A stretch of 64,000 nt of DNA, taken from the IMG/VR virus record IMGVR_UViG_2756170314_000001, positions 1-64,000 of that record, one strand, 5' to 3'. The DNA is from a virus. Lineage: Duplodnaviria; Caudoviricetes. Shown in pieces: positions 12,156 to 63,727 of the stretch (its first letter is position 1; every line of letters begins with the position of its first letter). Position numbers and translations under genes: made by a program. A model generated the notes under the pieces. It ran no database searches. It worked only from the letters and a program-made list of their open reading frames with translations, and had not been told where the DNA came from.

Positions 12156-12279
12156 CGTTTTTCTCCTTTCATCTATCTCTTACATTATTAATTATACCAT
12201 TTATTGGAAGTTTCGTACACTCTTTTTTGTAAGTTCTTGTCGAATTTTGTCAGTATAAGTCAATAAAAAATGGCAAAGC

Positions 12280-14743: not shown

Positions 14744-14868
14744 AATATGACCTCCAATAAAGTAGTTGAATTATTTATCTCTTACATAATTAATTATAAT
14801 CCAACATATGGAAATCGTACATATTTTTTGTAGAGATTTGTCGAATTTCGGCAAGAAAAAAGGGCAGC

Positions 14869-16863
14869 CTAAGCTACCTCAATTTTCTTAAGTTTCCTTG
14901 ATGGAGAAGCATAAACACCAGTAGCGTTTCGGCCATTCGTTAAGTTGAAGTTTTTTGTATCAACGGTTAACTTTGATTTATCTGTCAGGAGATTTAGGCT
15001 AACATCATCCTCTAAAGTAATCATGTCTAACAGGTCTTGCTTTAAGCAGTATGAGTTTTTAAGGATCGTCCGGTTACCCTGGAATGCTTCTAGATTGATT
15101 TTTGCGATCCGGTTATTCGAATATGCTGCAATAATAAACTTATGAGTGCTATCTAAAATAGAATACGAAACAATAGTTATATTTTTATCCCGAATCATAT
15201 TCGGCAGATACGTCCCAAGAGCATTGGCTCGTGTCTCGTCAATATCCTTAAGTTCGACTTTATGACAAACTCGGTCGGATCCAAAGATAAGGATCTCGGC
15301 TTTATTTTCTGTTTCAAAAACTTTTAAAACTTCATCCCCAGGTTTTAGATTAGGTTCCTGATTCCCTTTAAACTTGTAGCAATAACCTTCCTTAGTGAGA
15401 TAGATTGTTACTGCATAGTTCGGTACTTCTTCTACAAGACGAACTGGTTTAACTTCTGTAAGTTCAACGATTTTTGTTCGTCTCTCCTTGCCGTACTTCT
15501 CCTTAGTTTCATTTAAACCCTTAATAATGATTTGATTTATTTTATCCTGACTTTCAACAATTAGTTTATAGTTCTCGATTGTTTCCTCGAATTTATCAAT
15601 GTCCTCAATTTTCTTAATGATGTACTCTCTATTAATGTTCCTCAACTTCATGTTGGCCACTTCTTTAGCTTGTTCGAAGTCTATTCCAAAATGCTTTTGA
15701 AGATTTGGTTCAATCTGATCTTGGCTTGATCTTCTAATGATTTCAATGGCTTCATCAATATCCAACAATACCTTCTCAAGACCTTGGAGTAAGTGTAGTT
15801 TACGAGTCATTGTTTCAATATCGTGAGACAATCCACGCTTAATACAAGTTGTTCTCCATTCAAGCCATTTATCAATTGTTTGCCAAACTCCTAAGACTTT
15901 GGGAAGATCATCAACAAGCATATTCATGTTCGCTGAATATGTTGATTGCAACGGAGTAAATTTATAAAGCTTTTCAAGCAGCACATTCATATCTGTATTT
16001 CGACGGGCAGTTATAGTGATTAGCATTCCCTTCAAGCCTGTCAGATCTTTAACATCAGTTACTTCTTTTAGCTTGCCAGCTTTATTTAATTCAACGATTT
16101 TTTCAATAATTGCTTCTCGTGTTGTAGAGTATGGAATTTCAGTAATGTGTATCTCATTCTTTACAATTTCGGCTTTTCCACGAATCTTAACTGTTCCCCG
16201 ACCTTCCTCGTTCAATTGGCGGAATACATTATCTTCTTTAACAATTAATCCCCCAGTTGCAAAGTCTGGAACTAGAACCGTTTTTTCTTCCGTCTCAATA
16301 TACTTAACAATGGCTTCAGTTAATTCTTTTAAATTGAATGATGGAATAGACGAACTAAAACCAACACCAATCCCTGAATTTGAGTATGCAAGTATTGAAG
16401 GGAATTTAACAGGAAGTACTTCAGGCATCTTCATTGTCCCATCATAGTTATCTATAAAATCAACAACATTCTTATCGAAGTTCTGCATCATATCAATTGA
16501 AATTTCAGAGAGCTTAACTTCAGAGTATCGATCAGCTGCCGGCATTAAATCTCTTGAAGTGTATTGTCCAAAGTTTCCTTTTCCTTCGAGCATGGGAATG
16601 ATATGTCGATCTTTCTGAACCATACCAACCATACTTCCATAAGAACTGCCATGAGGATGTAACTTCATAACCTGTCCAGCAACATTTGCTGATTTCGTGA
16701 ATTTAAAGGCTTTTTGTAAGTACATAGAATAAAGTATTCTTCGATGAACAGGTTTAAGTCCATCTCGAAGATCAGGTAGAGCTCGATCGAGTAAGATATA
16801 GGCAGAATACTCCATCATATTGTTTTCAATGATTTGTTCTATGTTTTTGTTTGTAGTAGTCAA
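14869..16863 (-). CDS. Type IIA topoisomerase subunit A (GyrA/ParC-like)
   Basis: RALPDLRDGLKPVHRRILY, HPHG, AADRY catalytic Tyr, PDFATGG; TTG start with GGAGG. Confidence 0.93.
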   Translation of the reverse strand: MTTTNKNIEQIIENNMMEYSAYILLDRALPDLRDGLKPVHRRILYSMYLQKAFKFTKSANVAGQVMKLHPHGSSYGSMVGMVQKDRHIIPMLEGKGNFGQYTSRDLMPAADRYSEVKLSEISIDMMQNFDKNVVDFIDNYDGTMKMPEVLPVKFPSILAYSNSGIGVGFSSSIPSFNLKELTEAIVKYIETEEKTVLVPDFATGGLIVKEDNVFRQLNEEGRGTVKIRGKAEIVKNEIHITEIPYSTTREAIIEKIVELNKAGKLKEVTDVKDLTGLKGMLITITARRNTDMNVLLEKLYKFTPLQSTYSANMNMLVDDLPKVLGVWQTIDKWLEWRTTCIKRGLSHDIETMTRKLHLLQGLEKVLLDIDEAIEIIRRSSQDQIEPNLQKHFGIDFEQAKEVANMKLRNINREYIIKKIEDIDKFEETIENYKLIVESQDKINQIIIKGLNETKEKYGKERRTKIVELTEVKPVRLVEEVPNYAVTIYLTKEGYCYKFKGNQEPNLKPGDEVLKVFETENKAEILIFGSDRVCHKVELKDIDETRANALGTYLPNMIRDKNITIVSYSILDSTHKFIIAAYSNNRIAKINLEAFQGNRTILKNSYCLKQDLLDMITLEDDVSLNLLTDKSKLTVDTKNFNLTNGRNATGVYASPSRKLKKIEVA

Positions 16864-16983
16864 GTTAAAGTTACCTCCTAGTTATTGAAAATTCTCATTA
16901 CGTAATCTTTATATCTAGTCTTTCTAAAACGTAAATGAGAATAAAAAAGATTGGCAATTTAATTGCCAACCTTAGAAAAGCTA

Positions 16984-18900
16984 TTAAATTGCTTCTTCAA
17001 CATACTTATAAAGATTTTCTGAAATATATTCTCTTCTGTTATCAACGCTGCTACCCATCCAAGTTTCTAAGGACTCAATCATATTTTCAGCGTCTTCAAC
17101 TGTTACTTTTATAAGGTTCCGGGTCTCTTCATTCATCGCTGTTTCAGCCATAGTAACTGCATCAAGTTCCCCAAGACCCTTACAACGAGCAATTGTGTAT
17201 TTACCCTTTAAAGTGTTGATCTTTTGGTCCTTTTCACTTTCTGAATAGAAGTAGATCATTGAATCATCTTCCATTTTGATTTCATAAAGTGGTGTTTGAG
17301 CTATATAAACATAACCTTCTTCAATTAGCTTCGGCATTAGTCGATAGATCATTGTAATGATTAAACATGCTATTTGAGCTCCATCAGAATCTTGGTCAGT
17401 AGCAATAATAATCTTTCCATAACGAAGGTTATTAATATTAAACGTATCAAGGTCCTTGTTCTTTTTGTCAGTTTGAATACCACAACCGAGAACCTTAATT
17501 AGATCAGTGATAATTTGGTTTTTAAAGATAGTCGTATAATCTGCTTTAAGGCAGTTCAGAATTTTTCCGCGAAGTGGATAAGCTGCCTGATAAACTGCAT
17601 CTCGAGCTAAAACAATTGAACCTAACGCAGACTGGCCTTCAGCAATAAAGATTTCAGAGTCTTTGCCATGCTTCTTACAGTCGACCAAGTTCGCCACTTT
17701 ATTTCCAATACCATCGACCTTTTCACTCAGTTTCTTTTTGAGCTGCTGTTTAGCCTTTTGAGACTGAGTATTATGTTTTTGAACTTCAAGTAAGTGATTA
17801 ACGAACTTTTTGAAGCCTTTTTCATTTTCTATTTGGAAAACTTCGAGAAGTTGGGTAGTATGCCTTTGGGCTAATTTTCGATAAAGCTTCTTATCAGTTG
17901 AAAGTTTTGTTTGGTTTTTAAATTCAACTTTATTTGATAAAGCCACCAAGACAAAACTAACGCTCGATTCAATATCTTCTGTTGTAAAAGAATTAATTCC
18001 TTTAGGGAATAATTTATTTTCTCTAGCATATTTATTACAAAAGGTTTTTATCCCAGTTATAACGCCGTCATTAAAGGAACCCCCATCAGAAAGGTAGGTT
18101 AAGTTCAAATAAGACTCCTGGATTGGATCGGTTGTTGTTGAAAAAGTAAGTTTTATTTGAGTTCGTTCCCCACCTTCTTCGTATAAAGATTCTGGTGCTG
18201 TAATCACTGGAGAAGTTGTTGTGCTGCCAATCAGTTCCTCAAAATACTCTTCAACGCTATCATAATGGAAAGTCTCTTCTTCACCGTTATGAATGAAGAT
18301 TAATTTAATCTTATGTGAACCAATAGCAAACCTTCTTACAATTTCTCGGACGACATCTTTGTCATAAGTAACCATAGGATAAACTTCAGGATCCAATTTA
18401 AAAGTTATAACTGTGCCGTGACGGTCTTCACTTATTTTTTCTTTTGTTAAGTCCTGGACGAGTTCCCCACCATTTTCAAATTTTAAGGTGTGTTTATATC
18501 CATCGTAATAAGATTCGATATGAAAAAACAACGAAGTAAAGTTGAGAACTGTCGCCCCTACACCATTAGTACCAGTAGTAGTCTGTTCGCTCGTTTCATA
18601 TTTTGTAGAGGCAAACAGGGTTCTAAACAATAATTCATAGTTTTTAACACCATCGGTTTCCCCATCAATGGGTATCCCTCGACCGGTATCTGTAACCCGA
18701 ACAGTTTGAAGGTCATCAAACAATTCAAGGGTAACTATTCCTTCATCAAAATTATTTATAACTTCATCAGTTCCATTAGCAAGGATTTCTTTCAAACCAT
18801 GATAATAGTTATCTGCTGATCCATACCAAATTGCAATTTTTTCTCTGGACTTCTCTCTATCGTCCAATCTTTTAATCTTGTCTTGATTAGTAGTAGTCAA
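16984..18900 (-). CDS. Type IIA topoisomerase subunit B (GyrB/ParE-like)
   Basis: GHKL motifs (EILANGTDE, DTGRGIP), EGQSA, PLRGKILN, TDQDSDG, KGLGE. Likely TTG start at 18900 after AGGAGG. Confidence 0.93.
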   Translation of the reverse strand: MTTTNQDKIKRLDDREKSREKIAIWYGSADNYYHGLKEILANGTDEVINNFDEGIVTLELFDDLQTVRVTDTGRGIPIDGETDGVKNYELLFRTLFASTKYETSEQTTTGTNGVGATVLNFTSLFFHIESYYDGYKHTLKFENGGELVQDLTKEKISEDRHGTVITFKLDPEVYPMVTYDKDVVREIVRRFAIGSHKIKLIFIHNGEEETFHYDSVEEYFEELIGSTTTSPVITAPESLYEEGGERTQIKLTFSTTTDPIQESYLNLTYLSDGGSFNDGVITGIKTFCNKYARENKLFPKGINSFTTEDIESSVSFVLVALSNKVEFKNQTKLSTDKKLYRKLAQRHTTQLLEVFQIENEKGFKKFVNHLLEVQKHNTQSQKAKQQLKKKLSEKVDGIGNKVANLVDCKKHGKDSEIFIAEGQSALGSIVLARDAVYQAAYPLRGKILNCLKADYTTIFKNQIITDLIKVLGCGIQTDKKNKDLDTFNINNLRYGKIIIATDQDSDGAQIACLIITMIYRLMPKLIEEGYVYIAQTPLYEIKMEDDSMIYFYSESEKDQKINTLKGKYTIARCKGLGELDAVTMAETAMNEETRNLIKVTVEDAENMIESLETWMGSSVDNRREYISENLYKYVEEAI

Positions 18901-19013
18901 GTTAAGCTTCCTCCTAAAATCTTTTCCCATATATTGGGATTAGGTTCTATAAACATTATATCCTTCGTTTATGAGTTCGTAAAACGATTTTAGGAGTATT
19001 TTTAGGTTAATTT

Positions 19014-19877
19014 TTAATTATCTAACCAATTATAAAACGGCACTTGCCCATTTATTTTCTTCCCTTTGAAATCAATATTTCCATACTTTAGATTTCTTTT
19101 ATGAAGAGCATTATCAAGACAAGTTCTTAAATAGGCTCCAAAATTTTTCACATCTGGGGTCTTCTCTACTTCGTCTAAAACCATAATGCAAACTTCTTTA
19201 GGCAAACCTTTTTTCATATATTCAGAGATTAAATTATGTATAGTTTCTTCTCTTGTTAACAATTTGTTAACAAGATTATTCTCATTATTATTAAAGTTAT
19301 TTTTAATAGAGTTATTATTATTAGTGGTTCTTTTTGAACTATCCGGATGGTTCAATTTGACCTCTCTTGATGGTTCAATTTGAACTTTCCCGGAAAGTTC
19401 ATTTTGACCTATCCGTTCATTACTGGAAAGTTCATTTTGACCCATCCAGTTTTTATCTATGTTTTTGGCTGTTTCCTCTGCTTTAATTAAAAGGTCATCA
19501 ACTTCATTGTTTAACCGATAAATATCTTCTTCGGTATACTCCAGCATTAGAGGATAGAGGATGTTCGACTTGTTCATCCCTTCCCTTTTTTCTTCTAACA
19601 GTTCGTATTTTGCTAATTCTTTCTTTGCTCTTTTGAAAGTTGAATCTGAGAATCCTAGAAGCTCTGAACCTTTTTCGATGCTTAAACGAACGTAATACCT
19701 TCCGAGTTCGTCTTTCCAATTGTTCATCATACTGAGCTTGATTCGGTCGATTAAAATTATGTAGAGTTTCATGGCATTCGGATTCATAGTTTTGTACTTG
19801 TCTCCGATCAGAAGAACTTTTGGAACCTGGTAAAATACCAGAGAGTCGAGGTTATTAGCTGTGAAATATTTACTCAT
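19014..19877 (-). CDS. repN: RepA_N-family plasmid replication initiator RepN
   Basis: FYQVPKVL...AMKLY..LIDRIKLS..NNWKDE RepA_N motif; 287 aa; internal iterons as in pLS32. Confidence 0.92.
   Translation of the reverse strand: MSKYFTANNLDSLVFYQVPKVLLIGDKYKTMNPNAMKLYIILIDRIKLSMMNNWKDELGRYYVRLSIEKGSELLGFSDSTFKRAKKELAKYELLEEKREGMNKSNILYPLMLEYTEEDIYRLNNEVDDLLIKAEETAKNIDKNWMGQNELSSNERIGQNELSGKVQIEPSREVKLNHPDSSKRTTNNNNSIKNNFNNNENNLVNKLLTREETIHNLISEYMKKGLPKEVCIMVLDEVEKTPDVKNFGAYLRTCLDNALHKRNLKYGNIDFKGKKINGQVPFYNWLDN
19325..19445. repeat. Five intragenic iterons (plasmid origin) next to an AT-rich stretch
   Basis: GTTC(A/T)(A/T)TTTGA(A/C)C-type repeats at ~19325, 19348, 19371, 19395 and 19428. Confidence 0.85.
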
Positions 19878-19930
19878 TTTTGTTGCTCCTTTTTGTTGAA
19901 GTCCGAAGCAACACCTGATATAATTGAATT

Positions 19931-20042
19931 AAAAATAGCCAAAAGCAATGAAAAGGCATATATGTAGCCCTGTTAAACTTTGGTCGGTTTGCTCAGGTGC
20001 TGCCAAGCGAAAAATAGTCTAGCGCCAACTAGGCTATTTTTT
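19931..20042 (+). ncRNA. Putative antisense copy-control RNA to the repN leader
   Basis: TTGAAG(19896)-17 bp-TATAAT(19919) with upstream TG; terminator AAAATAGTCTAG-CGCCAA-CTAGGCTATTTT-TT at 20011-20042. Confidence 0.65.
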
Positions 20043-20045
20043 ATT

Positions 20046-20074
20046 ATTATAATACTTTGTTGAACTTTCGTAAA
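20046..20074 (-). promoter_or_regulatory. repN promoter
   Basis: TTTACG-17 bp-TATAAT on the - strand, about 165 nt upstream of repN. Confidence 0.65.
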
Positions 20075-20121
20075 TGAGTATAAAAAAATCCTCCTTTATC
20101 GTCGAAAGAAGGAAGAAATGG

Positions 20122-20151
20122 TTGACATATTGGGTATGTATTAGGTAAAAT
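20122..20151 (+). promoter_or_regulatory. Near-consensus SigA promoter of the putative multi-target sRNA
   Basis: TTGACA (20122-27), 18 bp, TAAAAT (20146-51); no ORF downstream. Confidence 0.75.
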
Positions 20152-20158
20152 GTGAATC

Positions 20159-20225
20159 AGTAGTTGAGTTAAAGTTATTTATCTCATAGTCCTACTCTTT
20201 TTCTCCGATTAGAGTGGGATTTTTT
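20159..20225 (+). ncRNA. Putative ~67-nt trans-acting antisense sRNA complementary to more than 20 phage translation-initiation regions
   Basis: Promoter upstream; 11-bp stem (20188-98/20211-21) with G-U pairs and a U tail valid only on the + strand; seeds AGUAGUUGAGUUAAAG, UUAUUUAUCUC and loop UUUUCUCCGAUU. Confidence 0.75.
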
Positions 20226-20235
20226 GTGTTCAATT

Positions 20236-20601
20236 TTAGGATTCATAATCATCATCATCGAAAAATGCTTCTAAATAATCAGTCTTACCACAATTGGTAC
20301 AAACTTTATCACTATTAGAGGTTTGATTGCAAAGCTCACAGTAGGCTTTTCCTTTTCTAACATCATCAATAACTTCTTCTACATATTCTTCCGGAATTCT
20401 AATTCCTTCTCTAGAGACCCCTTTAATCGGTTTAGTATTGAATTCATACTTGAATAAGGTTTCTGTATCAACTTCTAGAGTTTTCCCTGAAATTTTCTGA
20501 AGTCTATCTTCCCAAACAGGATCTCCAATGTATACTCCTGACAGATCAGTGTTTTCATTTCTATAAATGTCAGCAGCATTTCTTCTTATTTTGATTTTCA
20601 T
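20236..20601 (-). CDS. Hypothetical protein with C-terminal Zn ribbon
   Basis: ATG 20601 after GGGGG RBS; CELC...CTNC. Confidence 0.65.
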   Translation of the reverse strand: MKIKIRRNAADIYRNENTDLSGVYIGDPVWEDRLQKISGKTLEVDTETLFKYEFNTKPIKGVSREGIRIPEEYVEEVIDDVRKGKAYCELCNQTSNSDKVCTNCGKTDYLEAFFDDDDYES

Positions 20602-20710
20602 TTTATCCCCCACAGAGTAAAGCTTATTAATCTCTCTATATTTATTATAACATTTTATGTAAGAAAATAAATAAAAAGTGAGCGAAAAAGCCCACTTTTT
20701 CAATAAAAAA

Positions 20711-21298
20711 TTAAATAATTTTTTCATCATTGTAATAGTGATCAGAACATAACGCAAGATAATAACTCTTTTCTTCTACAAATGTTTCTCCAGATCGAGA
20801 GACTTTTCCATCAACAATTCGAGCATTATACTGAGCTATCTTAGAGCACTTAGAAGCTTCGCAACCTCTTGAGATTCGGTTTATGTTTTCGGAGGGTAGG
20901 ATGGTTAAAAGGTGACTAGATGAGTCAAATAACTCTCCTGTGAAGGTTAGATCAAGACCATAAAAATGAATAGGTACGTGGTAGCTTTCTGATAATGAAA
21001 CAAATTCTTCAACGGTTTCTTTAGGAAGAAATTGAGATTCATCAATATAAATTGTTTGGGTATTTGTCATGAATATAATGATTTCTAATAAAGAAATATT
21101 TTGTTTGAATTGATCCTTGTTTAAGTTAATTGATCTTAGGCTGCGTCCATCTCTACTTTCAATTTTTCCTCTTGAAAAAGTATCTTCGGTTAAACTAACT
21201 GAAAGGGCAACTTTTTCTTTAGGATCAATTAAGTAATCATCTATTAACTTTTTAGACTTTCCAGAACCCATTAAACCAGTATTAAAAGTTATATCCAT
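20711..21298 (-). CDS. tdk: Thymidine kinase
   Basis: GLMGSGKS Walker A, IDESQF, YGLDLTFTGELF, C-terminal Zn/lasso region. Confidence 0.85.
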   Translation of the reverse strand: MDITFNTGLMGSGKSKKLIDDYLIDPKEKVALSVSLTEDTFSRGKIESRDGRSLRSINLNKDQFKQNISLLEIIIFMTNTQTIYIDESQFLPKETVEEFVSLSESYHVPIHFYGLDLTFTGELFDSSSHLLTILPSENINRISRGCEASKCSKIAQYNARIVDGKVSRSGETFVEEKSYYLALCSDHYYNDEKII

Positions 21299-21415
21299 AG
21301 ATAAAGTCCTCCATTGTAAGATTTAACTTTGTAATTATATCCGTACAATAGAGAACGTAAATGAAAAGACCAAAAAAGGTCCAGCTTAATAGCTGAACCC
21401 TTAATTAAAAACTTA

Positions 21416-21631
21416 TTAGATTAAGATTGAAACTTTACGGAATGCTTCTTTGCTAGCACATGCTACAGGTTTATTCTTGATTTCTTCTTCAGAAAAATCA
21501 TACTTAATATTTTCTAACATGCTTTCATAATCAATAGAAGAAGGATCAATTTCAACTCCAAAATCTTCTTTAGCCATCTCAATAGCTTTTAGAGTTTCTT
21601 CTTTAAGCAATTCGATAGTAAGTTTTTTCAT
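21416..21631 (-). CDS. Hypothetical acidic protein
   Basis: Has its own SigA-type promoter and RBS. Confidence 0.6.
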   Translation of the reverse strand: MKKLTIELLKEETLKAIEMAKEDFGVEIDPSSIDYESMLENIKYDFSEEEIKNKPVACASKEAFRKVSILI

Positions 21632-21745
21632 GGTTAATTCCCTCTTTCTTAGTAGTTGATTTGTTATTTATCTCTCTTACATTATTAATTATACCATATA
21701 TTGGAAGTTCTGTACATAAAAAATACGGAATTTAGGTAAAAATTT

Positions 21746-25796: not shown

Positions 25797-26089
25797 GATT
25801 CCTCACCATTGTAATTAGCAACGTAATCGAAAAAATTCATCACTTTAATTGATTCTTCAAGTTCTTTGCTGTTAAATGGGCCGTCGTAGTTTGCAATTCT
25901 ATCGCCTTCCCTATCAAAGAAAACCAATGTATGAGTCTTTTCAATTTCATATTCTTCAATTAGCTCAGGATGTTCGTCAATTGACACTTTCTCAAATTCG
26001 CTGCCTTGTAAATCTGCTGCGTTTATTTGTCTTTCCAAGAAATCATTGAGTGGATCGTTCACTTTATATATCCAAATAACCTTAACCAT
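25793..26089 (-). CDS. Thioredoxin-fold protein lacking CxxC
   Basis: KVSIDEHPELIEEYEIEKTHTLVFF Trx-like pattern; no Cys. Confidence 0.5.
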   Translation of the reverse strand: MVKVIWIYKVNDPLNDFLERQINAADLQGSEFEKVSIDEHPELIEEYEIEKTHTLVFFDREGDRIANYDGPFNSKELEESIKVMNFFDYVANYNGEES

Positions 26090-26136
26090 AGTGTATTCCT
26101 CCGATTAGTAGTTGAGTAAGGGATCCTCCGATCCCT

Positions 26137-27006: not shown

Positions 27007-27292
27007 AGTAGTAGTTGAGTCCTTTCTCCGACTTAAATAATATTTTATTTATATTATTATTTAAGTTGTTATTTAATTCTTTATATTTATATCTGGTTAT
27101 TGAAAAACGTAAATCATTTATTACATTATTTTTTAAATAAATTACTTATGACCGTCATGACTGAGGGTATTATATCGGTTATAACAGAAATGTAAATCAT
27201 GACTGCGATATTTTGCATTTAGATGGTTGGTTATATTATTAAAGCAAACTAATTTCCTTGTAGAGCCCTGTAGAAGCAACAAAAGCCGCAGA

Positions 27293-30200: not shown

Positions 30201-31135
30201 GTAATTGTTCCAAGTTTGGATCTTATCTCATTCGTATTATCAACAAGAACATCTAATAGTTCCTCGTCAAAGTACTCAAGCAATTCTTCATATCCCATAA
30301 CGTAAGTTGTGGCGTAAAATTCATCAACTTCTCTCTCCCCTTCTGATGCTGTAAGGTATATTTTATGTGCCGGAGCATATTTTTTATTTAGATAATGGGC
30401 ATCAGTAGAGACAATACATTTAACGTTGTAAGCTTCCGACACTTTTAGCATCATTTCATTAGCTACTAATTGGTCACGGTTTTTTGATGGCTGCAGTTCA
30501 AAATAAAGATCTTCTCCAAAAACACCTTTTAACCAAACAATGAAATCATGTACTCGTTTTTTATTTTCAGGAGTAGGATTATCATGATATGAAATTAGAG
30601 ACTGAGGAAGTTCTCCACCAACACAAGCTGTACAAGCAATAATTTCCCCTTGGTACTCCTGCATTAAAGACATTAATTCATCTTTGTACGTAGGAACACG
30701 TTCCATTCCACGGTAGAAGAAAGAGTTGTACCAAGCTTTAGAGCTAAGTTTTTTCAGACCTTCATATCCTTTTTGTGACTTGGCGATTAATATAAAGTGG
30801 TGGAAACTAATCTTTTGGTTTAATGATTTTTTCTCCATGGTATCTTCTTTATCAACCAGGTAAATTTCATTGCCGAACCCTAGTTTAAAATCTCCAAGAC
30901 GCTCTTTATTCTCTTCAACATACTTATGAGCTTTTACATGGGATGATAAAGTTTCGTGATCTGTTATGACTACTCCACTCAATCCAATCTCATGGCAGTA
31001 ATCAATCAATTCTTCTGGTTTATTAATCGCATCTCTTAGTCGAAAATTTGATGCATCAGTGTGTGAATGAGTTAAGAAAGGTTTTTTCTTATACTTTTCT
31101 ATACTTCTATTGATACTTCGTAGTAGTCGAGCCAT
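27293..31135 (-). CDS. dnaE: DNA polymerase III alpha subunit (DnaE-type)
   Basis: PHP domain (HSHT, ITDHE, TDAHY); VSRGSA, PDIDLD, GQHASG, KLDYL, YSFSLPH. Confidence 0.95.
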   Translation of the reverse strand: MARLLRSINRSIEKYKKKPFLTHSHTDASNFRLRDAINKPEELIDYCHEIGLSGVVITDHETLSSHVKAHKYVEENKERLGDFKLGFGNEIYLVDKEDTMEKKSLNQKISFHHFILIAKSQKGYEGLKKLSSKAWYNSFFYRGMERVPTYKDELMSLMQEYQGEIIACTACVGGELPQSLISYHDNPTPENKKRVHDFIVWLKGVFGEDLYFELQPSKNRDQLVANEMMLKVSEAYNVKCIVSTDAHYLNKKYAPAHKIYLTASEGEREVDEFYATTYVMGYEELLEYFDEELLDVLVDNTNEIRSKLGTITFAQETKVPKAHIPKYEMSQLFVPHYMEYEYIRKYAESRYDIDRYYLHLIAEGMVAKKQDLNKENLSRINTELDELYHITENLGQPLSSYFVLSKDVVDLMWQVSLVGVSRGSACCFYLNYLLDIVQLNPIKFNLPHWRFLSKERPELPDIDLDSEGSKRHEIIQITKDHYGEENVLNMGTFTTEGTRSTVLTSCRGLGIDKDIAHNIANLIPTRKGGIWSLHECFYGNPKEGTKPAKEFCREVDKYEGLKEAMLSIEGLISGRGQHASGVIIFPDGYIKQNAMMKTTSGLPITQFDAEDSIYMGGLKLDYLSINALDRIRTALDLLLEHGKIEWQGSLRATYNKYFHPDVLEMESPKMFDLLFKGHVLNAFQFETAVGQQALTKINPRSFDELCAGNSLMRLSTDGEQPLDKYVRFKNNIQDWYEEMKTASLNEEEIKILEEHLLDRYGICDTQEGLMLLAMDERIAGFSLTQANKFRKAVAKANQKLIEDQRIKFYEGGEKTGARKVFLDYVWNKELKPQFGYSFSLPHIAGYTMILMIEMNICHRYGAIYWKTACLSVNAGMIGETEKGTKYGAIAKAVGDMKGDILNPDINLSNKEFTPLEEENKILFGLKPIAGLGTDAIEKIIEHRPYKNFGDFFKKIVDPGLISEAKVVSLIKAGCFDSFYPNRRLLMIDFVKAITPKKEKLTMVQLPTIIHLADKQRFGTELEVYKFRNKLFGRNKVPMTREIEQEFMDFLQAYPYQVDYEFKDGKLCVDQKTFDKAYKEIIEPLRMWVTSPEAAEQFNKIKMKEFWAKHCQGTIEAWEMETLLFYSKKHELDYMPLHNYFNIANFNDLPSNPVITGYKKNRRGNDVPQYKIDVIAGTVVEKNKQKSLVHVLTQDAGVVTVRYSKGQFAHYDKKVVRVHGKEKEVLDPSWFERGSKLVLVGFRRGEEFVLRTTGTQFKHSTMKIKGYDSEKLYLQMAKVAE

Positions 31136-33475: not shown

Positions 33476-33936
33476 TAAAGGACTCCCTCCTTGACAAGAT
33501 CGTTGGCAATTTCCTCAGGAGTCTTATATGTTGTGTCTACAATGATCTTCTTCATTGGGGACTTATCAAAATAAAATTTATAAAAATGCTTATGCAAAGT
33601 ATAATCAAGAATTTCGTGGCCGGTCTGAATGCATCGATCTATCAGGACTTTTGTGTCACAATCAAGGTAAATTACGAGTACGTCTTCCATCTTAGCTAGG
33701 TGTTTTTCTAAATCATCATAGTTATCCCATAATTGAGGATCCCGACTAAACAGGTCACAGTATGTTTTAAAACCAATCGGTCCCCTATCGACTACAATAT
33801 GTTTGTAGCAAGTGGCTTTATTTATAGCATGTTGTAAAGTTGATTTTCCCGAACGATCAACACCTTCAAGGATGATGATTTTTGGCTTAACAAATTCAGG
33901 AGTCGGCGCGACAACACAAGTAGTTGAGTTAGTCAT
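33475..33936 (-). CDS. Deoxynucleoside monophosphate kinase (dTMP kinase-like)
   Basis: LEGVDRSGKST P-loop and VDR motif. Confidence 0.8.
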   Translation of the reverse strand: MTNSTTCVVAPTPEFVKPKIIILEGVDRSGKSTLQHAINKATCYKHIVVDRGPIGFKTYCDLFSRDPQLWDNYDDLEKHLAKMEDVLVIYLDCDTKVLIDRCIQTGHEILDYTLHKHFYKFYFDKSPMKKIIVDTTYKTPEEIANDLVKEGVL

Positions 33937-36333: not shown

Positions 36334-36401
36334 AACTGTTGTGTCTCCTTTTTGTGAGTAATTGAGTTAAGTTATATCTGTTATAAAAGTTACGAGGGAT
36401 G

Positions 36402-39944: not shown

Positions 39945-40004
39945 AAATTTTTCCTCCTAGTAGTTGAATCTTCGTTATTATATCTGGGGTTTTTAAAACG
40001 TAAA

Positions 40005-41124: not shown

Positions 41125-42717
41125 TTAAAAAACGGGCACTTCTTCAGCCGAATCTTCAGTTGCTTCGATAGCATATTCAATATCCATTGGGTGAACATCT
41201 AGCAAATTAAAATCGTAGTCTGTAACGAATAATGGCTCTTCTCTCATAGTTCCTAAATTCATGTAAGTCCAGATAATTACGTTACTGTACTTTCCCCCAC
41301 GATTTTTATAAACCCAATGAGAGTAGTTTGGTTTTTTGTTAGTAAAACCGGTTTGCAAAATGTGCTTTAGATTATGATGATCTGAAGCTCCTGCCCTAAA
41401 TGTAAGTATGCCAAAGTCAACTTTATCTGCTGTGGCTTGTCCACCACGAAGGGCTGAAGGGTCTCTATTTTCAATATCCTTAGAACCTCTATTTAACTGA
41501 GTCGAAGAAGCAATAAAAATATCGTACTTCTCAGCAAGAATCTTTAATGATGATGAAAACTGATGAAGAATCTGGTCTTCCCGAAGATGATTCCCAAACG
41601 CACTTGCCATTGTTCTGGAGAGTTTCGGGGTCATTTGAATATAGTCGAAGGCACACTCTTGAATATTGTTTTCAATAATATGTCGTTCAATAATTGTTTC
41701 AATATCTGAAATTGAGAAGTCATTTACATATTCGCAGAAGATAGGAGCCCTCTTTAAAATTTCGATTGCTTTTTTGAGCCTTCTTAAAACTACTTCAGAA
41801 TACTTACCATCTTTAATTACGTCTTCATCGACTCCAGAAATGAAAGCAAGCATAATTGTTTGAACTTCTCTTTTTACAAGCTCCGTTGATATGAATAGGG
41901 TAGGGATTGATGGACCATTGCTTACATATTTGTTTTGGTCAATATCAAAAATTTCGTCACACGAAGCATTACACATATCAGCTAATGCTTGACGAGTTTT
42001 CCCCGTCCCCGTACCAGCTGAACGCAGCATAAGCTTTGTTTTCCGTTTTCCACGAAATATTGTGTTATAGAACTTGTTCGTGAATGGGTTTCCGTACTCA
42101 GGATCTTCGTCTAACTCATCCAGAAGAGTATCCAAGTCATCACCAGCCATAAAGCTTTTTGTCTCTTGGCCGATATTAAATTCATCTTTAATCTTAGTCA
42201 ACTTAATTGTGTAATGGTCGATTATTTCATTAACAGTCATGCTGTCTATTTTTTTCATTCCATCATTCCGAACCTTTAAGTCAGTAGACTTCCAATCATA
42301 AAGATCTGTCACATCAATTCCATTTAATACGTAGTGTCTTAATAAAGAAATCTTTTTCAGTCGATCATAGCTGCTTTTAAAGGTATTTTCATTTGCATGA
42401 GCTATTGATTTTCTTATATAAGATAAACCATCATTTTTTTCCCAGATCTTATAGTGCTGAGGAAAAGAAGCTAGGTAATTATCGAGGTCAATTTCATCAA
42501 TCTTAGTGACTTCATAATTTGAGTAAGCGATATTATATATTGAAGAAAACACAATTTGATGAAATTCATGAGCAAAGTCTTTTTCTGTAATGATAATCTC
42601 CGAATCTCTTAAAAGATGAGGGTTTTTACAAAGTGAGCCTATAACAGAATAGACTGCACGAGTAGGGTTTAAAGCTTTCATTACATTATCAGTAGTAGCT
42701 GAGTTAACTTCTGTCAT
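41125..42717 (-). CDS. DnaB-like replicative helicase
   Basis: AGTGTGKT, FISTEL, FDYIQ and STQLNR. Confidence 0.9.
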   Translation of the reverse strand: MTEVNSATTDNVMKALNPTRAVYSVIGSLCKNPHLLRDSEIIITEKDFAHEFHQIVFSSIYNIAYSNYEVTKIDEIDLDNYLASFPQHYKIWEKNDGLSYIRKSIAHANENTFKSSYDRLKKISLLRHYVLNGIDVTDLYDWKSTDLKVRNDGMKKIDSMTVNEIIDHYTIKLTKIKDEFNIGQETKSFMAGDDLDTLLDELDEDPEYGNPFTNKFYNTIFRGKRKTKLMLRSAGTGTGKTRQALADMCNASCDEIFDIDQNKYVSNGPSIPTLFISTELVKREVQTIMLAFISGVDEDVIKDGKYSEVVLRRLKKAIEILKRAPIFCEYVNDFSISDIETIIERHIIENNIQECAFDYIQMTPKLSRTMASAFGNHLREDQILHQFSSSLKILAEKYDIFIASSTQLNRGSKDIENRDPSALRGGQATADKVDFGILTFRAGASDHHNLKHILQTGFTNKKPNYSHWVYKNRGGKYSNVIIWTYMNLGTMREEPLFVTDYDFNLLDVHPMDIEYAIEATEDSAEEVPVF

Positions 42718-44590: not shown

Positions 44591-44977
44591 TTATGACTGT
44601 TTCACTTCATAATTGTGATAAACCCAAACAGGGTTGGTTCCTAACAAAGCCAGTTTAAATTTGCTTAATATCTTTGTGGCTTCCTCGGTAAGACTAATTG
44701 TATCTCCGTCTTCATTACTTGAAGCGAACATAATATTCCCACAGATCACTACATCCCAATCGGTGATAGATGGATTTGGGGTGTTTTTTATAATAAGGGA
44801 TGGCATTGGGGGCTCTTCCTTTAAAAGAAATCCATCGTCGTACCACACGTCTAACTCCTCAATGCTTGTCAAAGCAAGAGTTCCTTGGATTTCTTTCTTT
44901 AGAAGATCATAAGTGCTGCCAACGCCCTCCTTAAAATTAATCAATTCTCCTGGCTTTAAAGTTGCGTAGTTGAGCAT
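44591..44977 (-). CDS. DUF3846-like hypothetical protein
   Basis: VWYDDGFLL...ICGNIMF...DGDTISLT pattern. Confidence 0.6.
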   Translation of the reverse strand: MLNYATLKPGELINFKEGVGSTYDLLKKEIQGTLALTSIEELDVWYDDGFLLKEEPPMPSLIIKNTPNPSITDWDVVICGNIMFASSNEDGDTISLTEEATKILSKFKLALLGTNPVWVYHNYEVKQS

Positions 44978-45075
44978 TTGTGTCTCTCTCCTTAAAGTTA
45001 TTTATCTCTTACATTTAAATTATACAATATCTGGAATATAACGTACATATGTTCGTATTTAAAAAGCCAAACTTT

Positions 45076-49772: not shown

Positions 49773-49842
49773 AACCTATTTCCTTTCTTGCAGTAGTTGA
49801 GTTAAAGCAAGAGAGGACGACATAATCATCCCCTCGCAATTA

Positions 49843-50877
49843 TTAAAGAATTTCTTTCATTTTTTGAATTGCAACGAATAACGGCTGAACTTGTTCTTTG
49901 GAAGCATCGGTTAACTTATTGCCGGCTCCAAATACTTCATCTACAATTCTATTAACTTCATCCATACGATTTGCTTTATGGAACTGAACACCAAGCTCAC
50001 GAGCTTCTTGCATCAGAGCATCATAATCCAGCTGTTCTTCTTGTAATCCAACTGATTCTTTTTCTTCTTTCAATTGAGAAGGATCAATTAGATTAATTGC
50101 ATCAGTAACGGCTTTTTTATATGCTTCAGCATCCAAAGGAATTACTGGAGCAATACCTTCAAATGTTGAACCGGCTTGCCATTGAAGTGTTTCTCGAAGA
50201 TGGATTACACGATGTTCATTCATGTGTTCATCAGTTGTAACTGTCATGAACAAGATGTTATCAACCATTTTATTGATTGGAGCCATGACTTTATCTTTTA
50301 GATCCGGAACATACTTTTCAAATTGATAGTATTGTTCTTTGGTCTTTTTATCAGTTACAAGAGTCATAGTGTCGTTTACCTGTTCTTGAAGGACCCCTGA
50401 AACAGGAATCTTAGTTGTGACTTGAGTTGCGTGAGCAATAAACACAGGAGTGTAACCGAGTCGTTCAATTTGCTGAAGATTTTTCTTCCAATCATTTTTA
50501 AGATCAACCCAGTCTTTTCCCCATTCAACCTGGCCGAACTCTGTTTTGTCATACTTTGAAAGGATATATGTTTCAAGCATTGCGTAAAGGTTTTCTACCG
50601 TATCAATGCAAACAACATCGTATCGTTCTTTAATTTTTTTGTTCTGCAACTGAGCTAAAACCTGAAGATATTCAATCCAGTTTGAAACGTATTGAACATT
50701 GGCACCAACAAGCACTTTATGCCGTTTTTCTGTGGCGATAAACAAAACTCGATCTCCATAGAGCTTATGAACAAAAGATGTTTTACCGATTTTAGGAACA
50801 CCATAAATAAATGAAGTGTAGGATGCTAAATCCGTACTTGCCTTAATCGGCTCTAAATTTAATAAGTTAATTGCCAT
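49843..50877 (-). CDS. AAA_24/Sak4-like ATPase (ssDNA annealing)
   Basis: YGVPKIGKTS, CIDTV, FIAH; near the SSB gene. Confidence 0.8.
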   Translation of the reverse strand: MAINLLNLEPIKASTDLASYTSFIYGVPKIGKTSFVHKLYGDRVLFIATEKRHKVLVGANVQYVSNWIEYLQVLAQLQNKKIKERYDVVCIDTVENLYAMLETYILSKYDKTEFGQVEWGKDWVDLKNDWKKNLQQIERLGYTPVFIAHATQVTTKIPVSGVLQEQVNDTMTLVTDKKTKEQYYQFEKYVPDLKDKVMAPINKMVDNILFMTVTTDEHMNEHRVIHLRETLQWQAGSTFEGIAPVIPLDAEAYKKAVTDAINLIDPSQLKEEKESVGLQEEQLDYDALMQEARELGVQFHKANRMDEVNRIVDEVFGAGNKLTDASKEQVQPLFVAIQKMKEIL

Positions 50878-50945
50878 AGTTGAGTTCCTCCGATTTGTTT
50901 AATGTGATTACTTTTTATTTATATCTGGTTCTTGGAAAACGTAAA

Positions 50946-52228: not shown

Positions 52229-53194
52229 TTAAAAATCTGGCATATCATCTGTATTTGGAGCATCACTAAATGGGTTATCATCTTGTGGTGGTTCCATTCC
52301 AGTTGGCAGAGATCCAGGAGGAAGATCATTTCCGTTCGAACCAAAACCACTTGGTGGTGTATCTTCAGCTGGTTGAGAAAGCTCCTGAAGCTTAAGTTTG
52401 CGGATTTGAAGAGCTGTTTCAATTTCTTCTTCTGTATAGGCTTTATCACCAAAGTAAGGAATTTCTCCACCAATTACTTCAATATTATTTACATAGTTTG
52501 TTACCTGACGAGCTTCAGCTTTCTCAGTAGATCCAAAGCCATGTGAAACTTGGTTTGATTCTTTAACTTCGTCAACAACAGCATAGTTATTAATCTTGAA
52601 ATTTAATTGGCCAGTAGAACCTACAGGGTATAAATCCATAAATGCTTCAGCAAGTTCGGCACCAACAATTGTATTTTTAAGTTCAATAACTTCATTCCCC
52701 CAACCAACAGTGAAGCCTTTAACTTTATATTCTCCAGTTGGAAGGTCATTTTTAATAACAGGTTCAAATCCTTGAACAACCGTATCAATAGTTGCGATTG
52801 CTTTATCTGGTCGATCATTTGTTTCATCTAAACGGTTAAAGAAGATTCCTTTAACTTGATTAAACTGAACAAGGTTTCCCTGAGCATTGTAGTATTCATT
52901 TAATGTAAGTTCTCCATTAACTTCAATTCGATCGGCTGCATCTGCCCCATCATCTTCAATAGTTTTGTATTCATTTTTTACAGTTTCAATGCCTTTAAAG
53001 AGTTTTGATGATTCCATCATAAACACTGAAATTTTGATTTCCTGAACATGGTTATCAAATTTTGAAAGAACAACCAGGTTACCAGACATATACTTATTGC
53101 CTTTTTTACTTGTTTTGACCTCTAAATCTTTCGATTTAAGGGTGCCGATTACTTGAACATTATTTTGAAGTTGTCTTAATTCTTTATTTTCCAT
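52229..53194 (-). CDS. Phage single-stranded DNA-binding protein
   Basis: NNVQVIGTL OB-type start; acidic C-terminus DDMPDF. Confidence 0.7.
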   Translation of the reverse strand: MENKELRQLQNNVQVIGTLKSKDLEVKTSKKGNKYMSGNLVVLSKFDNHVQEIKISVFMMESSKLFKGIETVKNEYKTIEDDGADAADRIEVNGELTLNEYYNAQGNLVQFNQVKGIFFNRLDETNDRPDKAIATIDTVVQGFEPVIKNDLPTGEYKVKGFTVGWGNEVIELKNTIVGAELAEAFMDLYPVGSTGQLNFKINNYAVVDEVKESNQVSHGFGSTEKAEARQVTNYVNNIEVIGGEIPYFGDKAYTEEEIETALQIRKLKLQELSQPAEDTPPSGFGSNGNDLPPGSLPTGMEPPQDDNPFSDAPNTDDMPDF

Positions 53195-53253
53195 GTGATT
53201 TTCCTCCGATTTGATAGTAGTTGAGTTATTTATTTTTATAAGACTCCCATGAG

Positions 53254-55358: not shown

Positions 55359-55937
55359 TTATGCTGATTTTGAATCGTCAACGATAAACGTAAAATTCTT
55401 AACAACCGGTGATCTTAACATCGCTGCATCATCAGCCATCGCTTCACTCATGCTTTTCACAACTTTAATTCTTTCATTTTCGAATTCCGGATAAGATGTG
55501 AGAATAATATCTCCAATCTCTGGTTCCACAGGATTTTCAACTGTTAAGTACTTTGTAGGAACTTTTTTAGATAAAGCCCGGTATAAAGCGATCGCTTTAC
55601 CAATATGCTCATTAAAGGTATCTCTCGGATCACATTTAGCAATACCTTTTGCGTAAATTCTTCCAGACCTATAACCTTTTAATAGAACTGTTACGACACG
55701 TTTTTTTCTATTGATGTGGTATTCAGGAACAGTAGCATAAGATCCAACTTCATATCCATCGCACATAGTGGAATCTTTTAAGTTTTCAAGGTCTGACTTA
55801 GCATCTTCAATAACTTTCTTTCTAGCAGTAATAACTCTAGGTGACTTATTAGCTCTCTTAGTGAGTTCTTCTGCTGCTTTGGAAATAAATTCGTTTAATT
55901 CAGTAGTAGTCAAGTTTTTGAAATTTACCTTCTGCAT
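55359..55937 (-). CDS. Conserved phage hypothetical protein
   Basis: ATG 55937 after AATCGGAGG; GIAKCDPRDTFNEHIGKAIALYRA motif. Confidence 0.65.
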   Translation of the reverse strand: MQKVNFKNLTTTELNEFISKAAEELTKRANKSPRVITARKKVIEDAKSDLENLKDSTMCDGYEVGSYATVPEYHINRKKRVVTVLLKGYRSGRIYAKGIAKCDPRDTFNEHIGKAIALYRALSKKVPTKYLTVENPVEPEIGDIILTSYPEFENERIKVVKSMSEAMADDAAMLRSPVVKNFTFIVDDSKSA

Positions 55938-62348: not shown

Positions 62349-62477
62349 AGTAGTTGAGTCCTCCGATTTTTCTTTATTTATTTCGAGTAACGAAATAATA
62401 TTATCACTTCTTTTTTGAGTCGTACACATTGATTACAGAATATTGCAAAAATAATAGCTAGATATTTGAATCTAGCT

Positions 62478-62780: not shown

Positions 62781-63727
62781 ATCTCCCTCCGATTAATGTA
62801 TGTAGTAGTTGAGTGAAAGTGGTGCTGCTGAATTGGTTATCTAACAACACCACTTTAGAAATGTCTGATAATTGGTATGATTATATCTGGCTCTATTAAA
62901 ACGTAAACCACATTAGCGAATTAATTTAATATGCCAATGCTAAAGCATTGTCTATTCGAAATTACTTACGTAATTTCTCATATGTTTATTTAATTTATTA
63001 TTTAATTTATTCATTAATAATTAATTGATATATAAAGACCATAGCTATTCGTAAGCATCCATGAAGATTAAGTTTAGAATTCTTACGACCACATCTAAAC
63101 AACTATACGTTCTTCTCCAGTGTTGATTTATAAGTTAATTCTTATTGGCTCAAACACTTAAAGCACATGACAACGGATAACATTACTAATCAACTGCAAG
63201 TCAATGATAAGGATGGTCAATGACGATTGATTAGTCTATCCATCGATCCCAGCGAAGATGAAGAATCTTCACCACCATTAATTGCTTAATGGTATTTGCA
63301 ACGGCGAGATAACCTTGGAGTTATTTGATAAAGGAGTGAACTCTCAGCTTCAAATGTCTCCGTGATTATTGAGTTGTGCAATATATTTATATCTGAGAAT
63401 GGTGAAACGTAAATTGGTAGGGAGAAATCAAACAAGAGTGAGGAAAATTCACACACGAAAAATTCGGGTGGAGTTGAAAATGATTGCCGCCTGCTCCGAG
63501 AGTTGGATCGAGGTTTGAAAAAGTAGCCGCCTACCCTTTCGGGAAAAAAATCGGTCTCGACAGGAATAACTGGAGGAGGTCCGTTCACACCAACCATCCC
63601 AAAACGCCCAAATTGTGTTGAAATTTAGGAGAAGGAACAAGAATTTTGTCATTCTTTGTTATAGAATAATAGTTAGATGGATATAATAAACATATAGAGA
63701 AAATAACCTAGTTGAGGGGGAAAATTT

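Follow-up and report, generated by a model that had tools for sequence, protein, structure and literature searches.

A candidate antisense small RNA and its complementary boxes at translation starts of a pBS32/pLS32-like plasmid

Here we describe a candidate small RNA (sRNA) gene at positions 20122-20229 (plus strand) of a 64,000-nucleotide stretch of DNA, called the window below, which spans positions 1 to 64,000 of a virus record of 84,613 bp (IMGVR_UViG_2756170314_000001). By its sequence the window is a pBS32/pLS32-like plasmid: 41 Bacillus plasmid records, including pBS32 (NCIB 3610) and pLS32, match positions 19850-20650 at 96.9-100% identity. The plasmid pBS32 of B. subtilis NCIB 3610 serves as a model in studies of cell death encoded on plasmids, of competence control and of phage-plasmid biology. 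The interpretation that we favour, to which we give a somewhat better than even chance, is that the unit encodes a constitutive trans-acting antisense RNA that occludes the translation starts of replication and nucleotide-metabolism genes; judged from the sequence, the sRNA probably holds this gene set in check. Its transcription, its pairing in vivo and repression as the outcome are what we infer from the anatomy and conservation of the unit and from the distribution of complementary sites in the window and in related elements.

A conserved promoter-terminator unit between repN and a Zn-ribbon gene

The unit consists of a promoter, a body of about 67 nucleotides (nt) free of open reading frames (ORFs) and a terminator. 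The anatomy proposed for it in an initial annotation is confirmed here: the SigA promoter TTGACA-18-TAAAAT points into the unit, the body sequence 20159-20225 reads as given before, and this body holds no plus-strand ORF of at least 20 amino acids (aa). The promoter ranks best of the 12 promoter-like sites in 19000-21500, a region in which such sites as a class show no enrichment (12 versus 10.2 expected). On the minus strand the unit is overlapped only by an ORF for a basic peptide of 24 aa and by the end of the Zn-ribbon gene (121 aa). The terminator has an 11-bp stem and a 12-nt loop and is preceded in the plus-strand fold by a weak 5' hairpin. While the plus strand folds to -19.4 kcal/mol (z -3.6; 2 of 200 shuffles as good), the minus strand reaches only -10.7 kcal/mol; the two G-U pairs and the U tail are therefore plus-strand features, as had been proposed. 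Within the pBS32 group the sRNA body is invariant and variation falls in the bases between the -10 box and +1 and in the tail; in one plasmid of the group a C is inserted in the 5' arm, with the fold retained.

The unit is kept at the same place in Geobacillus phage GR1 (OK896991.1, L014) and in six IMG/VR contigs, where it adjoins the Zn-ribbon gene and mostly rep as well. GR1 surfaced via the neighbouring Zn-ribbon gene, which is 74% identical at the DNA level, and it shares with pBS32 the synteny of gyrase-like A and B, rep, the Zn-ribbon gene, tk, an alfA-like gene, a sigma factor gene and rusA. Its unit, between rep and the Zn-ribbon gene, reads TTGACG-17-TAAAAT, 6 nt, then AGTAGTTGAGTTAAG; a middle part and stem that differ from those of pBS32, the loop UUUCCUCCGAUU and a U tail complete it. 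Of the contigs, L015, L016 and L073 were retrieved by a pattern demanding seed and loop, L028 was found by this pattern and independently via RepN, and L349 and L351 were found only via the Zn-ribbon protein. A word search with the seed alone returned the same homologue set plus L328, which we rejected as a homologue: it shares a 16-nt seed word, is otherwise unlike the unit and has no other box on its contig. A blastn search of plasmids and phages with the GR1 unit returned GR1 itself only, profile searches with a RepN alignment gave no new contig, and loose pattern scans of genome and metagenome contigs gave no further homologue among the approximately 240 matches listed.

Among these homologues the 11-nt seed is kept throughout, except that L028 starts with G and L351 has one N. 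The promoters are TTGACN or TTGATT with a spacer of 17-18 and TAAAAT or TATAAT, and the seed follows the -10 box after 6-7 nt. Five variants fold with z-scores of -4.3 to -5.1, and L028 more weakly (-2.2). The conservation and covariation check suggested along with the initial annotation supports the terminator: over eight sequences 83.8% of the cells in the terminator pairing are paired versus 66.4% after shuffling, 7 of the 10 pairs have changed on both sides, in a compensatory manner, and the covariation score is 0.589 versus 0.257 for shuffled alignments, 0 of 500 of which reach it, and at most 0.19 for slid registers, figures that come from few sequences and from a covariance-model alignment fitted to the structure.

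These data bear on the idea that the unit is a product of chance or a fossil, an inverted leader remnant caught between promoter-like and terminator-like sequence with no functional gene. The minus strand of the unit does resemble a rearranged leader (AATCGGAG, then GAGATAAATAA, then the box complementary to the seed), and promoter-like sites are not enriched in the region. The unit has nevertheless been kept, with compensatory stem changes, among elements whose neighbouring proteins are only 46-69% identical, and we regard a fossil as very improbable.

Although GR1 is filed as a phage, its replication block is syntenic with that of pBS32, down to an alfA homologue of actin type and a sigma factor resembling SigN; it is therefore probably a phage-plasmid relative. 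Its rep protein is only 19% identical to RepN, though the intergenic RNA units are kept.

The complementary box lies at translation starts

The seed complement ACTCAACTACT (at most 1 mismatch) has 14 matches in the window, all on the minus strand, where 1.04 +/- 1.04 are expected; in this comparison of seed matches with shuffled sequence, which had been proposed as a check, 0 of 100 shuffles reach 14 and none exceeds 5. Extended to a 13-mer with at most 2 mismatches, the box has 17 matches over the entire record, all but one on the minus strand. To assign sites to genes we used the 92 of 100 annotated coding sequences (CDS) that could be mapped (8 were dropped), 61 on the minus strand and 31 on the plus strand, and counted a gene as a target when sRNA nt 1-11 were paired with at most one non-pair and at most two G-U pairs within -60 to +30 of its start. 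A box by this definition stands at the start of 18 of the 61 minus-strand genes and of 1 of the 31 plus-strand genes, and a further exact box precedes an ATG near 53190 whose CDS is unmapped and which lies outside this count. The figure of more than 20 target genes given in the initial annotation was thus slightly too high, while its statement that many start regions are matched stands.

The 18 targets comprise topoisomerase A and B, DNA polymerase III (Pol III) alpha (PHP), a DnaB-like helicase, NrdE, an AAA ATPase, dUTPase, thioredoxin, a deoxynucleotidase, DNA ligase, a metallopeptidase and seven hypothetical proteins (Table 1). Box-like matches on the minus strand are concentrated at starts, with 18 of 40 inside start windows that make up 6.6% of the strand (p 1.4e-11). 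The 5' ends of the boxes at the target genes span -37 to +22 relative to the start codon. In mRNA sense a box can lie in the 5' untranslated region (UTR) just ahead of the Shine-Dalgarno sequence (SD), in the gap that separates SD and ATG, over the start codon itself or just inside the coding sequence, and its presence is independent of promoter type and promoter distance.

Boxes are found in the relatives too. GR1 has 10 on the gene strand and 0 on the other, with 2 and 5 for reversed-pattern controls; G006 has 7 and 1, and G001-G003 lean likewise relative to their own sRNA. The boxes of these relatives again lie in leaders and first codons, and in the helicase and Pol III genes they fall in different reading frames. 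That boxes stand in 5' UTRs and, within early codons, in different frames argues that selection acts on the nucleotides and not on the protein. When orthologues were compared in GR1, G003 and G001 (G002 was left out as a near-copy of GR1), a box was present at the orthologous start in 10 of 23 comparisons for box genes versus 3 of 49 for box-less genes (p 3e-4).

A box variant, AACTTGAC(..)TACT, contains the TTG start codons of three genes, those for topoisomerase A, topoisomerase B and alfA (minus strand; 16863, 18900 and 23028). It departs from the consensus box at two positions, and both changes still allow G-U pairing with the sRNA seed. The variant recurs at +22 of the gene starting at 55937 (55915 region, minus strand).

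We interpret the box as one side of an RNA-RNA interaction because the transcript of a conserved promoter-terminator unit is predicted to begin with the seed, because the loop of that unit is conserved and its stems covary, and because the box goes with start codons, not with promoters, and co-occurs with an extended SD described below. The main rival is that the box is foremost a protein site, either a DNA roadblock or operator or a site in mRNA, the copy at 20159 serving for example as an operator on its own promoter, with no pairing involved. An invariant seed is as expected of a protein site, as are an asymmetric 11-13-nt site in many copies of a single orientation relative to transcription and a presence that does not depend on promoter type and distance. 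Against this, the box tracks start codons, also within CDS and in varied frames, and not promoters or gene ends. A protein site would also leave unexplained why every homologue has a box that begins where transcription from a conserved promoter is predicted to start, why the plus-strand terminator covaries, and why a conserved loop is complementary to the extended SD that accompanies the box. No protein emerged as a candidate for binding the box; the Zn-ribbon protein encoded next to the sRNA has no known family. On balance we consider the protein-site explanation unlikely.

Loop complementarity and pairing energies

The loop UUUUCUCCGAUU is the complement of AATCGGAG, which has 14 matches, 13 on the minus strand, versus 1.74 expected, and it is antisense to an extended SD, AAUCGGAG, that is typical of this element. 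The SD form TCGGAG is present at 8 of the 18 box genes versus 5 of the 43 other minus-strand genes (p 0.007), and at 1 of 31 plus-strand genes. The complement of the middle part, GAGATAAATAA, is mildly enriched (15 matches versus 5.04 expected), and its three exact copies outside the RNA gene each start a paralogous TATAAT-type leader. The proposal that all three unpaired parts of the RNA match motifs recurring at translation starts thus holds for seed and loop, whereas the match of the middle part is weaker and belongs to the pBS32 lineage only. Leaders of the relatives have no complementarity to their own middle part upstream of the box, so that the conserved interaction would be seed-box plus loop-SD.

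Duplexes formed by sRNA nt 1-29 reach a free energy (dG) of -18 kcal/mol or lower at 19 of the 92 start regions. The corresponding number is 0.96 on average and 6 at most for 200 dinucleotide shuffles, and 3.1 on average for 200 native plus-strand 29-mers, one of which reaches 19. When both partners were allowed to fold, 18 of 92 start regions gained a structure-aware pairing energy (ddG) of -10 or lower, versus a mean of 4.4 and a maximum of 15 for 39 controls with seed and loop shuffled. The three long duplexes singled out in the initial annotation exist, at 16855-16876 (22 nt), 44992-45008 (17 nt) and 49792-49808 (17 nt). At the first of these, in topoisomerase A, ddG is -21.3, the SigN promoter zpaB lies upstream and the box is kept in 4 of 4 orthologues; at the two-part site of the 128-aa gene, which includes the second, the seed-duplex energy is -31.9 and the structure-aware ddG -21.8.

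Proposed mode of action

In the interpretation that we favour, a near-consensus SigA promoter would give rise to a 67-71-nt RNA from the strand opposite to nearly all genes of the replication block, ending at its own intrinsic terminator and presenting two conserved single-stranded modules, the 5'-terminal seed and the terminator loop. The seed AGUAGUUGAGU would pair with the 11-nt leader box ACUCAACUACU and G-U-compatible variants of it at about 18-19 genes, and the loop UUYCUCCGAUU could pair with the unusual extended SD AAUCGGAG. Pairing at or beside the ribosome-binding site would most likely block initiation and may trigger cleavage of the duplex, and leaky or low-level transcripts of the regulon would in this way stay untranslated during the resting plasmid state.

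The same pairing could have another outcome, in that targets are activated or stabilised, by the opening of leader hairpins or the protection of 5' ends, or in that the mRNAs serve as a sponge, titrating the RNA so that it does not reach some other target. The position of half of the boxes, upstream of the SD, would suggest this, as would hairpins that adjoin the box in some leaders (for example at 26089 and 49772); yet nine of the 18 overlap either the SD-AUG region or the opening codons, and the loop is anti-SD. Pairing over the SD-AUG region or the first codons and an anti-SD loop are the usual marks of sRNA repression, and we see little probability in an activating or sponge-like arrangement.

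A third arrangement is one in cis. All genes around the sRNA locus are on the minus strand, and the minus-strand terminator lies only downstream of the sRNA gene (20113-20089), so that minus-strand transcripts must cross it; 20114-20235, with the whole sRNA gene, may accordingly be the 3' UTR of the Zn-ribbon mRNA. The sRNA might then act mainly in cis, destroying the read-through or 3' UTR of the thymidine kinase (tk)/Zn-ribbon transcript or insulating the repN control region against transcription that enters it, with the matches in trans being secondary. Consistent with this are the position of that minus-strand terminator, the sRNA terminator that abuts or overlaps the Zn-ribbon stop codon in every homologue, and a perfect 67-nt duplex that is stronger than any site in trans. 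Action in cis needs no set sequence, yet the RNA has drifted everywhere except in the 11-nt seed and the loop, and the box enrichment at 18 starts and its conservation among orthologues would have no explanation. We therefore doubt that cis action is the main role, for which the chances seem low; as an added function against Zn-ribbon read-through it is possible.

Several observations weigh against the favoured interpretation. Transcription of the unit is unsupported: of 24 listed runs four were examined, two of them raw-read runs with 0 plasmid reads (the plasmid is absent from both) and two of them Logan assemblies of RNA libraries with a single contig each over 19800-20400, which are uninformative about transcription. 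The conservation of seed and loop in L015, L016 and L073 is partly by construction, because the search pattern required both, and the seed is so invariant among homologues that they offer no variation in which a covariation of seed and box could be read. The loop motif CUCCGAU, kept in all other homologues, is CUCCUAU in L351, and in L028 it is predicted in a stem and not in a loop. Half of the 18 boxes, at -25 to -37, are beyond the classical 30S footprint. Substitutions in box variants show a weak excess of G-U-compatible changes (9 of 19, p 0.024), which AT bias confounds, and with structure taken into account the gain at the nrdE site is only -5.4 kcal/mol. Finally, a G-U-tolerant count with the whole RNA is less distinctive, being reached by 35 of 1405 native decoys; most of these are themselves complementary to start regions elsewhere on the plasmid, and the RNA therefore looks like the antisense of a generic leader.

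Relation to the SigN regulon

The known switch of pBS32 is transcriptional, with LexA, SigN and antisense sigN transcripts as its components (PMC6751061, PMC10601692). The SigN promoters in Table 2 of the first of these agree with pattern matches in the window. As far as that table extends, a box stands at the first gene behind the promoters zpaB, zpbQ, zpcJ, zpcU, zpdB, zpdG and zpdH and at an internal gene in several other SigN operons, and about half of the listed promoters have no box at their first gene. Neither sigN nor repN is among the predicted targets, and the repN start is outside the 32 best seed duplexes. The earlier suggestion of an RNA layer on top of SigN control agrees in part with these data: many targets belong to SigN operons in the published table, while sigN itself is no predicted target and about half of the first genes lack a box. 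If the favoured interpretation is true, the sRNA adds a post-transcriptional layer to the LexA-SigN switch, could help to explain the silence of a toxic, self-activating regulon, and would be a rare instance of a mobile element whose own genes have been given a box dedicated to a single RNA. Both elements of the pairing, box and seed, have a short, defined sequence and are simple to mutate, which makes the idea directly testable.

A more far-reaching version, which strikes us as improbable, is an RNA 'stoperator' form of immunity, in which one constitutive sRNA and a regulon-wide box would impose a threshold, at the level of translation, on the replication and death programme that SigN drives in pBS32-like phage-plasmids. 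An induced flood of box-bearing mRNAs might titrate or destroy the sRNA and so flip the switch, and the perfectly complementary tk/Zn-ribbon read-through 3' UTR, behind a SigN-like promoter recognised by regular expression only, might do likewise.

Comparison with known antisense RNAs and repressor sites

The unit is short, ORF-free and bounded by its own promoter and intrinsic terminator, and it has a conserved single-stranded seed with complementary mRNA sites beyond chance, which are features of a trans-encoded sRNA. In a search of Rfam no match in the window reached the gathering score, and 19800-20400 gave only chance-level matches up to E 10 (for example to snoRNAs), so that, as far as this search proposed earlier can tell, the sRNA belongs to no Rfam family, C4 included. 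Text searches of the literature on pBS32/pLS32 and phage GR1 gave no description of the sRNA or the box; supplements such as Rend-seq maps may already show the transcript.

C4 RNA of P1 and P7 and CI RNA of P4 are cut from longer transcripts and act at two or three sites in one operon; CI RNA causes termination and C4 RNA blocks one ribosome-binding site, and P1 is a phage-plasmid. Shared with the pBS32 sRNA, as predicted for it, are constitutive synthesis as a small antisense RNA encoded by a temperate element, action in trans on short complementary boxes in transcripts of that element, and a part in immunity. The pBS32 sRNA differs in having its own promoter, which ends 7 nt before the seed, and boxes at about 18 dispersed starts over about 50 kb on the other strand. 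Membership of the C4/CI family was rejected, as there is no Rfam match and as neither the promoter just before the seed nor the dispersed targets fit processing from a longer transcript that carries target boxes downstream.

Chromosomal sRNAs also offer parallels in architecture. RybB and OmrA/B have a conserved 5'-terminal seed, a Rho-independent terminator and many targets near the ribosome-binding site, and the Firmicute sRNAs RsaE/RoxS have a CU-rich loop complementary to the SD. All of these are chromosomal and control host regulons through target sites of independent origin, whereas the pBS32 sRNA has a dedicated 11-nt box that is conserved across elements and is itself located in a mobile replication module.

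Stoperators of cluster A mycobacteriophages are DNA sites bound by a repressor protein. They occur as dozens of short asymmetric copies in one orientation among the early and replication genes of a temperate phage and silence their region in the resting state. The box likewise has many asymmetric copies in a single orientation relative to transcription, but the partner that pBS32 encodes and that is conserved is an RNA, and the sites track translation starts.

Countertranscripts of the pSK41 RNAI type are, like the pBS32 sRNA, small RNAs that neighbour a rep gene of RepA_N type and have a terminator and a constitutive promoter; the pBS32 sRNA differs in lying upstream of the predicted repN promoter and in not being antisense to the repN leader. 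We rejected a copy-control role for it, since it lies upstream of both repN promoter candidates (20105..20077 and 20074..20046) and beyond the minus-strand terminator; such a role fits a second RNA unit at 19896-20048, described below, instead. A type I antitoxin was likewise rejected, as only the 24-aa basic peptide and the end of the Zn-ribbon gene overlap the unit and there is no small hydrophobic toxin ORF.

Neighbouring genes and further elements of the locus

Positions of the sRNA features, the neighbouring genes and the target sites are collected in Table 1. Beyond the Zn-ribbon gene follow tk, alfB and alfA, all on the minus strand.

Table 1. Coordinates in the window of the sRNA gene, its neighbours and the predicted target sites
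Feature	Position	Strand	Remarks
SigA-type promoter TTGACA-18-TAAAAT	20122..20151	+	11/12 positions match
5' seed AGUAGUUGAGU, predicted 5' end of RNA	20159..20169	+	exact complement of box ACTCAACTACT
Variable middle part, weak hairpin 1	20170..20187	+	in pBS32 antisense to leader start GAGAUAAAUAA
Terminator hairpin	20188..20225	+	arms 20188-20198 and 20211-20221; loop 20199-20210, UUUUCUCCGAUU; U tail
Terminator-like hairpin	20089..20113	-	downstream of sRNA gene for minus-strand transcripts
Topoisomerase B-like gene	16984-18930	-	
RepN gene	19014-19877	-	Pfam RepA_N domain
Zn-ribbon protein gene	20236-20601	-	121 aa; no known family
Target: zincin-like metallopeptidase	14761..14771	-	box in TATAAT-type leader
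Target: topoisomerase subunit A (zpaB)	16855..16876	-	over SD-start spacer and TTG; 22 nt, 2 G-U
Target: topoisomerase subunit B	18892..18902	-	variant ACTTGACTACT over TTG start
Target: 71-aa gene	21651..21661	-	box AATCAACTACT in TATAAT-type leader
Target: thioredoxin-family gene	26107..26117	-	box directly 5' of SD AATCGGAGG; kept in GR1
Target: dUTPase (zpdH operon)	27010..27020	-	box in SD-ATG gap; kept in GR1 and G003
Target: PHP/Pol III alpha (zpdG)	31122..31132	-	codons 2-5, 2 G-U; same place in GR1 and G002
Target: first gene of zpdB operon	33919..33929	-	box in codons 3-6
Target: YfbR-like deoxynucleotidase	36357..36367	-	box in leader
Target: zpcU (SigN) transcript	39959..39969	-	box at about +5 of transcript, directly 5' of SD
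Target: DnaB-like helicase	42694..42704	-	codons 5-8; kept in 3/3 orthologues
Target: 128-aa gene	44965..45008	-	two-part, flanks SD and ATG: GAGATAAATAACTTTAA upstream, CTCAACTAC in codons 2-4
Target: nrdE	49792..49808	-	17-nt perfect site upstream
Target: AAA ATPase (zpcJ)	50875..50885	-	box-like, 1 non-pair, over ATG
Target: CDS unmapped, ATG near 53190	53216..53226	-	exact box 5' of AATCGGAGG
Target: 192-aa gene	55905..55915	-	variant ACTTGACTACT at +22
Target: ATP-dependent DNA ligase	62349..62359	-	box in SD-ATG gap
Target: 99-aa gene	62804..62820	-	box in leader; zpbQ promoter upstream

The Zn-ribbon protein has a C-terminal CxxC...CxxC zinc ribbon and an acidic tail and falls in PHROG 28968 (function unknown). 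Its gene is convergent with the sRNA in most homologues, the stop codon abutting the sRNA terminator. A SigN-like promoter, TTACG-N-GGATATAA, precedes tk at 21310-21335 (minus strand); it was recognised by regular expression only and is absent from the published SigN list as given in Table 2 of PMC6751061.

A second conserved RNA unit lies at 19896-20048 (plus strand). It would yield an RNA of about 115 nt (minimum free energy -34.1, z -3.0) from the promoter TTGAAG-17-(TG)TATAAT at 19896-19924, and it has a strong terminator at 20009-20042. The predicted repN promoter at 20046-20074 (minus strand) joins a SigN-type -35 element, TTTACG, to a SigA-type TATAAT, and if repN starts from this promoter (TTTACG-17-TATAAT, 20074..20046) the second RNA is antisense to the predicted repN leader. 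GR1, L349 and L073 retain its promoter, the motif AACTTTGGTCGG and a terminator that covaries; L015 retains them in part. The unit looks like the copy-control countertranscript of a RepA_N replicon.

Lastly, the minus strand carries five paralogous promoter-leader cassettes, with -10 boxes near 12196, 13067, 14798, 21693 and 45024 and the common pattern (TTCCAATATATGG)TATAAT-N6-7-GTAAGAGA(GA)TAAATAA. The cassette 19-mer TTCCAATATATGGTATAAT has 3 matches at no more than 3 mismatches versus 0.05 expected, and the near-palindrome upstream of the cassettes may be the operator of an unknown regulator.

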